A DNA stretch of 64,000 nt, from IMG/VR virus record IMGVR_UViG_3300043427_002668. One strand, 5' to 3'. Positions 6,827 through 22,233 of this stretch are shown here, piece after piece. The translations under genes were made by a program, and so were the position numbers. Positions within the stretch are counted from its first letter, which is position 1; every line of letters begins with the position of its first letter. The notes under the pieces were generated by a model that was given only the letters and a program-made list of their open reading frames with translations, searched no databases and had not been told where the DNA came from. This DNA is from a virus (lineage: Duplodnaviria; Caudoviricetes).

Positions 6827-6867
6827 CATCAACGGGTTAAGAAATGTAACAGGTTCTTAATCTTTGT

Positions 6868-6985
6868 GCTCCCGTTAACCGAGACCTATGGGAGGGTAAA
6901 TCACGTCTCTCATACCCACACTGGAGGGTGGTGTGGGGAATATTGTAACATCCAGAACCCCCTGGACTTTTACTTACCCTTTAAC
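6868..6985 (+). ncRNA. PhotoRC-II-like cis-regulatory RNA in psbA 5' UTR
   Basis: ACCGAGAC...GTCTCTCATA...GAGGGT pattern and hairpins (CCCACAC/GTGTGGG, TCCAG/CTGGA) upstream of a cyanophage psbA. Recognised from memory of the motif; boundaries approximate. Confidence 0.65.
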
Positions 6986-21454: not shown

Positions 21455-21781
21455 ATGGGGAAGCATTACTTACTTAACTTGTATGGATGCTCGTTTGTCC
21501 TTTTGGACGACGAGCGTTGTCTTATAGACTTATTAGAAAACGCAGCAGCTGCAAGTGGTGCTACTGTAGTTCAGACCATTTCAAAGAAGTTTCATCCACA
21601 GGGAGTCACTGTGATTTGCTTGTTGTCTGAAAGTCATATCAGTATCCATACATGGCCTGAGGAAGGTAAAGCAGCAGTGGATGTTTATACTTGTGGTGAT
21701 TGTAATCCAAAGATTGGTTGTGATATTATCATTCAGCAACTTTATGCATCTAATCATACATTGAGTTACATAGAACGGTAA
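21455..21781 (+). CDS. speD: S-adenosylmethionine decarboxylase proenzyme
   Basis: GKHYLLNLYGC, LSESHISIHTWPE, VDVYTCG. Confidence 0.93.
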   Translation: MGKHYLLNLYGCSFVLLDDERCLIDLLENAAAASGATVVQTISKKFHPQGVTVICLLSESHISIHTWPEEGKAAVDVYTCGDCNPKIGCDIIIQQLYASNHTLSYIER

Positions 21782-21791
21782 CAAATGTTAC
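21778..21791. promoter_or_regulatory. NtcA-type palindrome GTA-N8-TAC
   Basis: GTAACAAATGTTAC, a perfect 6-2-6 palindrome. Confidence 0.65.
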
Positions 21792-21799
21792 AAAGTTAG

Positions 21800-21828
21800 T
21801 TGCATATATAAACCAACGGGTCTATAAT
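21800..21828 (+). promoter_or_regulatory. sigma70 promoter of riboswitch-led transcript
   Basis: TTGCAT-17-TATAAT; the predicted start (about 21835) coincides with the aptamer 5' end. Confidence 0.8.
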
Positions 21829-21835
21829 GATCCTA

Positions 21836-21919
21836 CGTTCATCCCTATGGGACGGAAGTAAGCCGACGCGGAACGGAACGTTCATCGGGAAACCGACGCA
21901 AACGCCGACTGAAGGAACG
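21836..21919 (+). ncRNA. glutamine riboswitch (glnA / Downstream-peptide family), tandem or nested
   Basis: Two CGTTC openers (21836, 21879), GGAAGTA, a GAAA-capped hairpin and GAAGGAACG closer, upstream of a DUF4278-like gene. Confidence 0.8.
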
Positions 21920-21952
21920 CTCTTTAACCTAAAAAACTAAGGAGAAAACCTA

Positions 21953-22090
21953 ATGTCTAAAGTAGTATATCGTGGCGTTGAATATGATACGCAAAAGCGT
22001 ATTGCATATCAACAGCAAATGATGCAACAACCCCAACAATACAACGAAACCTATCGTGGTGTTAAGTTTGTAAAGGAGGGACACAAATGA
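21953..22090 (+). CDS. 45-aa DUF4278-like peptide (not in ORF track)
   Basis: MSKVVYRGVEYDTQKRIAYQQQMMQQPQQYNETYRGVKFVKEGHK with two YRGV motifs; AAGGAG RBS. Confidence 0.85.
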   Translation: MSKVVYRGVEYDTQKRIAYQQQMMQQPQQYNETYRGVKFVKEGHK

Positions 22091-22188
22091 ACACTTACTT
22101 CGTTCGTTACCTTAAGAAAAAAGCAAAGAAGGAACAACTCCTTCATAACGCACAATTGAATATGGCTAAGCAACCACAAGTTGCTTAA
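22087..22188 (+). CDS. 33-aa basic peptide (not in ORF track)
   Basis: MNTYFVRYLKKKAKKEQLLHNAQLNMAKQPQVA; ATGA coupling; terminator follows. Confidence 0.65.
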   Translation: MNTYFVRYLKKKAKKEQLLHNAQLNMAKQPQVA

Positions 22189-22194
22189 TAAATC

Positions 22195-22233
22195 AGAGAG
22201 GGACTTGACTCCCTCTCTTTTTTTATGTATAAT
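22195..22233 (+). terminator. terminator interleaved with the next promoter
   Basis: AGAGAGGGA-cttgac-TCCCTCTCT plus T-run; TTGACT 22205-10 begins in the loop, then 17 nt, then TATAAT 22228-33. Confidence 0.8.

Follow-up and report, generated by a model that had tools for sequence, protein, structure and literature searches.

Positions 21836–21920 of a 64,000-nucleotide stretch of viral DNA (IMG/VR record IMGVR_UViG_3300043427_002668; the whole stretch is termed the window below) are likely to encode a single folded RNA unit in which two glutamine-riboswitch cores are nested, one inside the other, and which is proposed to act as a translational ON switch. The source virus is a freshwater T4-like cyanomyovirus. 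Judged by its sequence, the outer core is a complete type-1 (glnA-type) glutamine aptamer. Its P3 element is not a capped hairpin; it is a long-range helix around 34 nucleotides, and these nucleotides form a second, circularly permuted core that probably binds a second glutamine. The substitutions accumulated among related phage sequences show both the nested architecture and the choice of pairing partners. The elements of the unit and of its surroundings are listed in Table 1.

Rfam's model for type-1 glutamine riboswitches, RF01739, matched positions 21834–21923 with a score of 43.3 bits in the cmscan search (E = 4e-6 for the whole window), compared with a gathering score of 35 bits, and this match is the sole one in the 96-kb virus record. 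The model aligns the stretch as one aptamer with a 46-nucleotide insert in P3. In addition to this score, the outer fold displays the P1 three-way junction with P2, the two E-loop halves, P3 and the long-range pair that are the hallmarks of type 1. The residue roles in the type-1 junction, namely those of the pocket guanine, the long-range guanine and the E-loop, have been described (PMC6698751, PMC6212724); PMC6698751 describes the type-1 structure, that of Ren et al. 2015. The long-range pair is G23:C60 in the solved type-1 RNA and C19:G41 in the type-2 RNA (PMC6212724, PMC6698751).

An earlier note on this DNA had read the stretch as two aptamers, a class I aptamer A (21836–75) followed by an aptamer B (21879–919) resembling the class II Downstream-peptide RNA, and had mentioned that the outer CGTTC might instead pair with the distal GAAG-GAACG in one class-I fold enclosing B. 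The motifs listed in the note are all present within 21836–21919, including GGAAGTA at 21854–60 and CGCAAACGCCGACTGAAG, whose letters were confirmed at 21897–21914. The single class-I fold is upheld by the Rfam score, by covariation and by an unguided RNAalifold prediction, which recovered the outer P1 together with the inner GAACG/CGUUC helix. Neither A nor B is a self-standing aptamer. When 21815–21882 was given to the type-1 model, A scored 31.4 bits, below the threshold because GAAG is absent after the first GAACG, and the model was forced to delete this 3' element. When 21874–21960 was given, B scored 30.9 bits, the model skipping GGAAGUA and P3, which B lacks. The class II assignment of B also failed: the Glutamine-II model RF01704, with a cut-off of 33 bits, yielded 13.2, 12.2 and 13.4 bits, about 12–13 bits for either half. 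The hallmark of that class, a 3' hairpin with a GGAACG loop pseudoknotted to the 5' CGUUC, is not present as a flanking element, and the GGAACG of the inner core stands 5' of CGUUC, 3 nucleotides apart. Neither half is thus complete, B falls outside class II, and a complete aptamer arises only when the 5' half of A is joined with the 3' half of B. Of the two Infernal models proposed in the note, glnA exceeds its cut-off over 21834–21923 and Downstream-peptide remains below. What survives of the two-aptamer idea is the presence of two aptamer-like cores, not their arrangement in series. Likewise, something is indeed enclosed by the outer fold, although not B itself: the enclosed core takes GGAACG-G from the 3' end of A and CGUUCA-hairpin-ACGC from the 5' half of B.

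The strands of this inner core are connected as in a type-1 aptamer and form a three-way junction. With a loop closing its P1 and with P3 left open, the core is a circular permutation. The loop contains 3 nucleotides in 171 of the first 223 distinct relatives parsed, 4 nucleotides in 43, and 5–6 nucleotides in 9. The glutamine pocket as named in PMC6698751 comprises the C:G and G:C pairs that come first in P1 and the guanine after P2, and the set of pocket nucleotides given there for types 1 and 2 is complete in both cores at the sequence level. The inner long-range pair, G21876:C21899, has the polarity of the type-2 pair (C19:G41, PMC6698751). Because GCCGAC can be read on either strand of the P3 common to both cores, this helix comes close to two-fold symmetry.

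Table 1 Elements of the nested riboswitch and its surroundings in the window.
Feature	Position	Strand	Basis
GTA-N8-TAC palindrome GTAACAAATGTTAC, NtcA-box consensus	21779..21792	+	sequence; upstream of promoter; putative NtcA binding
Promoter region: TATATA 21805–10; TATAAT 21823–28 with TTGCAT 21800–05 at 17 nucleotides	21805..21828	+	sequence
Candidate 5' hairpin GGGUC-UAUAAU-GAUCC, directly before the aptamer	21818..21833	+	arms complementary in relatives
Outer P1, 5' strand CGUUC	21836..21840	+	pairs with 21915–19 (Rfam alignment); invariant in 44/44
Outer P2 hairpin UCCC-UAU-GGGA (stem 21842–45/21849–52)	21842..21852	+	double changes at 3/4 pairs; 100% of cells paired
Outer junction CGGAAGUA: pocket G21854, long-range G21855, E-loop half AGUA 21857–60	21853..21860	+	RF01739 consensus
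P3, 5' strand AGCCGACG, common to both cores	21861..21868	+	pairs with 21903–10
Inner-core GGAACG (GAACG 21871–75) and long-range G21876; C21869 before	21870..21876	+	GAACG pairs with 21879–83
Loop bases AA, forming with G21876 the 3-nucleotide loop closing inner P1	21877..21878	+	sequence
Inner P1, 3'-side strand CGUUC, and A	21879..21884	+	unguided RNAalifold; alignment
Inner P2 hairpin UCGG-GAAA-CCGA	21885..21896	+	double changes at 5/9 alignment pairs; 99% of cells paired
Inner junction CGCAAA: pocket G21898, long-range C21899	21897..21902	+	C21899 covaries with 21876
P3, 3' strand CGCCGACU	21903..21910	+	covariation with 21861–68
GAAG, outer-core E-loop half	21911..21914	+	RF01739 consensus
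Outer P1, 3' strand GAACG, and long-range C21920	21915..21920	+	Rfam alignment; C21920 covaries with 21855
Anti-Shine-Dalgarno CUCUUUA, starting at C21920	21920..21926	+	7 pairs with 21938–44, minimum-energy fold
Shine-Dalgarno region UAAGGAG, 8 nucleotides before ATG at 21953	21938..21944	+	sequence
45-amino-acid peptide gene, two YRG motifs, DUF4278/IF17-like	21953..22090	+	list of open reading frames
Basic 33-amino-acid open reading frame, ATGA overlap with peptide gene stop	22087..22188	+	list of open reading frames
Intrinsic terminator ending the small operon	22195..22226	+	9-pair stem, then T run

The region was found by blastn in 196 phage records, and pattern scans of IMG/VR yielded several hundred loci. 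The resulting family set comprises at least 220 distinct members from viral contigs and cultured cyanophages, among them the model phages S-PM2 and P-SSM4 as well as S-CREM1, ACG-2014f and DSL-LC02. They share a common plan, with CGUUCA-hairpin-ACG(G/C)AAGUA-P3a-(N)CGGAACG-x followed by 2–5 nucleotides in the 5' part and CGUUCA-hairpin-ACG(y)AAA-P3b-GAAG-GAACG-z in the 3' part. Covariation was evaluated on an alignment of 44 short relatives, with 500 shuffles as the control. In this alignment 93% of cells are paired under the nested structure and 14 of its pairs carry double changes, a level reached by 0/500 shuffles; P3 contributes double changes at 5 of its 8 pairs. Across the 220 members, position 8 of P3 is U:A (96 members), G:C (35) or A:U (7), A:U, G:C, C:G or G:U stands at position 1, and whole alternative helices occur (AGUCG/CGACU, AGUCA/UGACU, AAACGAC/GUUGUUU and GGACGG/CCGCCC). 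The long-range pairs are kept in 44/44 (outer) and 39/44 (inner) of the short relatives. The outer pair, G21855:C21920, is Watson-Crick in all 220 members, of which 107 have G:C and 113 have C:G. The base that follows the first GAACG is G throughout and does not follow this switch, as a model with the aptamers in series would need. The inner pair, 21876:21899, is G:C in 203/220 and C:G in 3/220 (L006, L128 and L268).

An unbiased scan, anchored on outer-core letters only, returned 79 distinct inserts: 54 with the inner GGAACG-N2-6-CGTTCA, 22 true doublets, one plain long P3, one chance match, and one locus, L387, that keeps the outer core and the same P3 while a simple hairpin occupies the site of the inner core. 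The inner motif is thereby present in 54 of the 55 members with this type of P3. The nested pattern was found in none of the cyanobacterial genomes scanned, a search with the exact pattern that does not establish its absence from the hosts. The genome scan also returned three 33-nucleotide matches, in short contigs assigned to metagenome-assembled genomes of non-cyanobacterial organisms; these contigs look like phage DNA.

In many relatives one or both of the aptamer hairpins enclose a whole small gene (for example L022:5043–5249, L001:1554–1706, and 204–404 and 444–617 in P-SSM4, locus L223). The gene in the first hairpin encodes a protein of about 68 amino acids with an apparent signal peptide, and the gene in the second hairpin a two-cysteine protein of 49–64 amino acids. 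An ATG lies within the 5' strand of the second stem in 124 of 125 long inserts, and in 117 of these 124 the nested open reading frame runs through ACGCAAA-P3b to a UGA stop over the P3b/GAAG border. All four combinations of short and long hairpins occur. The window carries the gene-free form, in which GACGCAAACGCCGACTGA is a remnant of the end of the nested reading frame. In four relatives (L048, L111, L115 and L196) the nested riboswitch is followed not by a DUF4278 peptide gene but by an open reading frame starting MALIL... that resembles the small protein inside the second hairpin of other relatives.

Several observations weigh against the nested, two-core reading. Most family members were gathered by patterns that fix the core letters. 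The P1 letters never vary and provide no covariation, so that the partner choice rests on P3 and the two long-range pairs. P3 itself has two symmetric mismatches in the window, C.A at 21863/21908 (position 3) and A.C at 21866/21905 (position 6), which are kept in most long-P3 members (137/220 and 125/220, respectively). The anti-Shine-Dalgarno pairing has no covariation support, and although most relatives have a CUCUUUA-type leader, a minority have a CACC-type leader with no obvious anti-Shine-Dalgarno segment. Both partner choices are compatible with the long-range pairs of marine ACGC-type relatives, a point that also speaks for aptamers in series. Other observations favour a single type-1 aptamer with an insert in P3 that binds no ligand and serves as a scaffold, is a relic of an in-series doublet, or is kept for other reasons, such as, in relatives, the nested gene's ribosome site and its C-terminal codons. 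The Rfam match needs the outer parts only. The inner core lacks the E-loop, the element type 1 uses, and its long-range pair is non-canonical in 14/220 relatives. The inner core is dispensable at least in L387, because a plain hairpin stands there. Moreover, part of the conservation of ACGCAAA-P3b need not reflect ligand binding, because relatives with a gene in the inner hairpin encode the end of its protein there. The single-aptamer explanation, the main rival of the two-core reading, is nonetheless considered unlikely. The window and 70-odd other distinct members have no nested gene, yet GGAACG-G, CGUUCA and ACGC are unchanged in them. The swap of the inner long-range pair from G:C to C:G and the full set of pocket nucleotides (PMC6698751) also stand against it, as does locus L050, whose inner core has its own full AAGUA/GAAG E-loop such that both ends of P3 are equivalent.

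Two further explanations concern the pairing partners of the P1 strands. That A and B are in-series aptamers binding independently, as in an ordinary pseudo-cooperative tandem riboswitch, would account for the score of about 31 bits of each half, and the energies of the two arrangements are close: calculated with ViennaRNA and no constraint, the aptamer region has the nested fold as its energy minimum, at -22.6 kcal/mol, and forcing the tandem P1 helices gives -20.5 kcal/mol, only about 2 kcal/mol higher. As explicit structures the nested and in-series folds have energies of -17.5 and -13.3 kcal/mol, respectively. Set against this, both halves fall under the Rfam cut-off, and the in-series choice turns the same four long-range bases into G.G and C.C in the lineage of the window. 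Among the 44 short relatives the in-series long-range pairs form in 4.5% and 2.3%, and among the full 220 in about 50%. The local P3 mini-hairpin that A would require is broken in 19/44 where position 8 changes from G to U, a change for which the long-range P3 helix shows compensation. Genuine doublets have their own P3 hairpins, full E-loops and linkers of 6–8 nucleotides. The in-series arrangement is thus very improbable for this element. Somewhat less remote, yet still improbable, is a partner-exchange switch in which the identical P1 sequences alternate between the nested and in-series folds, glutamine selects the nested one, and the exchange is the regulatory step. Nearest-neighbour energies place the two folds only about 2–4 kcal/mol apart, and in this lineage only the nested fold forms both long-range pairs. 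In addition, when the full leader is folded, the energy minimum has an open outer P1, with 21906–26 paired to the Shine-Dalgarno and start region; no supporting covariation was found for the pairing of GAC 21907–09 and AGG 21913–15 with the start region in that fold. However, exchange alone would not change the anti-Shine-Dalgarno segment, because GAACG 21915–19 is paired in both folds. None of the helices peculiar to the in-series fold is conserved among the 44 short relatives, and the two states are a prediction from calculated energies.

The most likely function of the nested element, based on analogy, is a translational ON switch for the downstream 45-amino-acid peptide. In the proposed mechanism, binding of glutamine to the outer core would fix C21920 in the long-range pair. 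C21920 would then leave the anti-Shine-Dalgarno helix (21920–26/21938–44), and the ribosome site of the peptide gene would be freed. This mechanism matches the one proposed for Synechocystis gifB, in which the ribosome-binding site is masked by the long-range C together with the bases 3' of it and glutamine binding is proposed to melt the helix (PMC6212724). The inner core, possessing every pocket nucleotide, would probably bind a second glutamine. One helix is predicted to have a core stacked on each of its ends, and the P1 strands of either core could mis-pair only with those of the other. Because the cores share this helix and the P1 mis-pairings are mutually exclusive, filling one core would favour the other and the response would be steeper. 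Cooperative sensing is thus plausible on the basis of the modelled fold. The fuller proposal, that both cores bind glutamine cooperatively and that the element is a natural 'domain-swapped', circularly permuted riboswitch dimer in one chain, is a tentative one. If it is true, the phages would read the nitrogen status of the host with a switch-like response.

The peptide of the window scored 19.6 bits with Pfam DUF4278 (PF14105), below the cut-off of 25.3 bits, and matched phrog_5049 with E = 1e-10. Of 18 orthologues that follow this RNA in relatives, 16 match DUF4278 with E <= 0.01, the best at 1.8e-13, and the two YRG motifs are invariant among them. DUF4278 is the N-terminal part of IF17/GifB, the glutamine synthetase inactivating factor, and short picocyanobacterial DUF4278 proteins lack the C-terminal residues of IF17 needed for binding glutamine synthetase (PMC6212724). 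The basic reading frame that overlaps the stop of the peptide gene has no family match in the Pfam and phrog scans.

The outer core shares with the type-1 riboswitch (RF01739) and the Synechocystis gifB leader (PMC6212724) P1, P2, the E-loop formed by CGGAAGUA...GAAG, P3 and the G:C pair, and it further shares with the gifB leader the anti-Shine-Dalgarno segment that begins at the long-range C, the downstream gene for a probable DUF4278 peptide and an NtcA-type box. It differs in that P3 is long-range and encloses a permuted core instead of a loop, and in that the host of the element is a virus. With the type-2 (Downstream-peptide, RF01704) riboswitch (PMC6698751), the inner core has in common CGUUCA-hairpin-CGC, the C...G polarity and a regulated gene of the probable DUF4278 family; however, it lacks the H-type pseudoknot, has GGAACG before CGUUC, and reaches 13 bits versus 33.

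Tandem glutamine riboswitches are known as doublets and triplets (PMC2864571), of which 157 doublets have been reported (PMC9481103). As in these, two glutamine cores precede one gene in one leader, and the likely purpose, a sharper response, is the same. In the in-series doublets each aptamer has its own P1 partners, P3 hairpin and E-loop, and the two are joined by a linker of 6–8 nucleotides. In the element of the window, in contrast, the P1 partners are swapped, a single P3 is made from both halves, there is one E-loop, and the loop is 3 nucleotides long. True doublets were met among the loci in phage contigs (L028, L061, L164 and L182) and in SAR86/SAR92 (L198–L214). The latter are canonical type-1 doublets in SAR86, SAR92 and Porticoccaceae genomes, that is, in Gammaproteobacteria; the type-1 class has been given as exclusive to cyanobacteria (PMC6212724). 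The tandem glycine riboswitch (PMC9481103, PMC5066625) is comparable in that two amino-acid-binding domains form one folded unit with a single expression platform, and structural coupling between the domains is expected here too. The glycine aptamers are arranged in series with tertiary contacts, whereas here one core is inserted in a helix of the other and the helix is shared.

Phage glnA RNAs have been described previously (PMC5473149, PMC9964418, PMC9004378). The S-CREM1 paper lists a 99-nucleotide match of 44.0 bits with no comment on its layout (PMC9964418); this match is the nested form. No description of the interlaced layout was found in the part of the glutamine riboswitch literature that was covered. 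Glutamine riboswitches, their tandem forms, which were treated as in series, and their occurrence in cyanophages are known, and the interlaced, permuted insertion appears new relative to the literature covered. Annotation is affected, as the standard models return one long match or two sub-threshold halves, and automatic counts could log nested elements as one long match, as for S-CREM1, or as doublets. The 91-nucleotide gene-free form in the window is the simplest member seen and offers a compact natural system for the question of cooperativity; in relatives, the hairpins of this scaffold can also accommodate whole genes.

The riboswitch stretch lies between speD (21455–21781, identified in the family scan) and the 45-codon reading frame. 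Reading frames resembling thyX and phoH, assigned from translations alone, occur a little downstream, and an Rfam covariance scan of the window located a PhotoRC-II RNA at 6857–6951. A PreQ1 match at 21908–46, with 17.5 bits versus 39, covers only the A-rich Shine-Dalgarno region and was taken as chance.

Among 115 relatives, 106 have a GTA-N8-TAC box no more than 75 nucleotides upstream of the element, and 71 have TATAAT within 20 nucleotides of it. The conserved NtcA-type box suggests two-layer, host-like control of the gifB type, in which the phage would copy the combination of box and riboswitch that governs the host gene. This supports the idea that cyanophages copy the host NtcA-plus-riboswitch control of an IF17-like peptide, tying infection to the nitrogen state of the host. 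The start of the box has two favoured distances before CGUUCA in the relatives, 58 or about 39 nucleotides, and the end of the box is about 13 nucleotides from the TATATA box. NtcA-activated promoters have a spacing of roughly 22 nucleotides between the box and -10. The shorter spacing here would suggest repression, as for gifB.

Either TATATA or TATAAT may be the active -10 box. The -35 hexamer agrees with the consensus at 3 of 6 positions only, and for this reason the promoter was left unlisted by the motif scan. The arms around TATAAT differ between relatives and stay complementary (AGGTC/GACCT, AGAGG/CCTCT, GGAG/CTCC and GGTGC/GCACC). The inverted repeat at 21818–21833 may therefore be a transcribed 5' hairpin instead of, or besides, a -10 box, and it would be in the transcript only when the upstream -10 box drives transcription. 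Contigs of relatives from four metatranscriptome studies span 21842–22090; as such libraries can contain DNA, they were counted as presence in RNA libraries only and not as evidence of start, strand or level. One of these contigs, 83 nucleotides in length, differs once from the window over 21851–21933.

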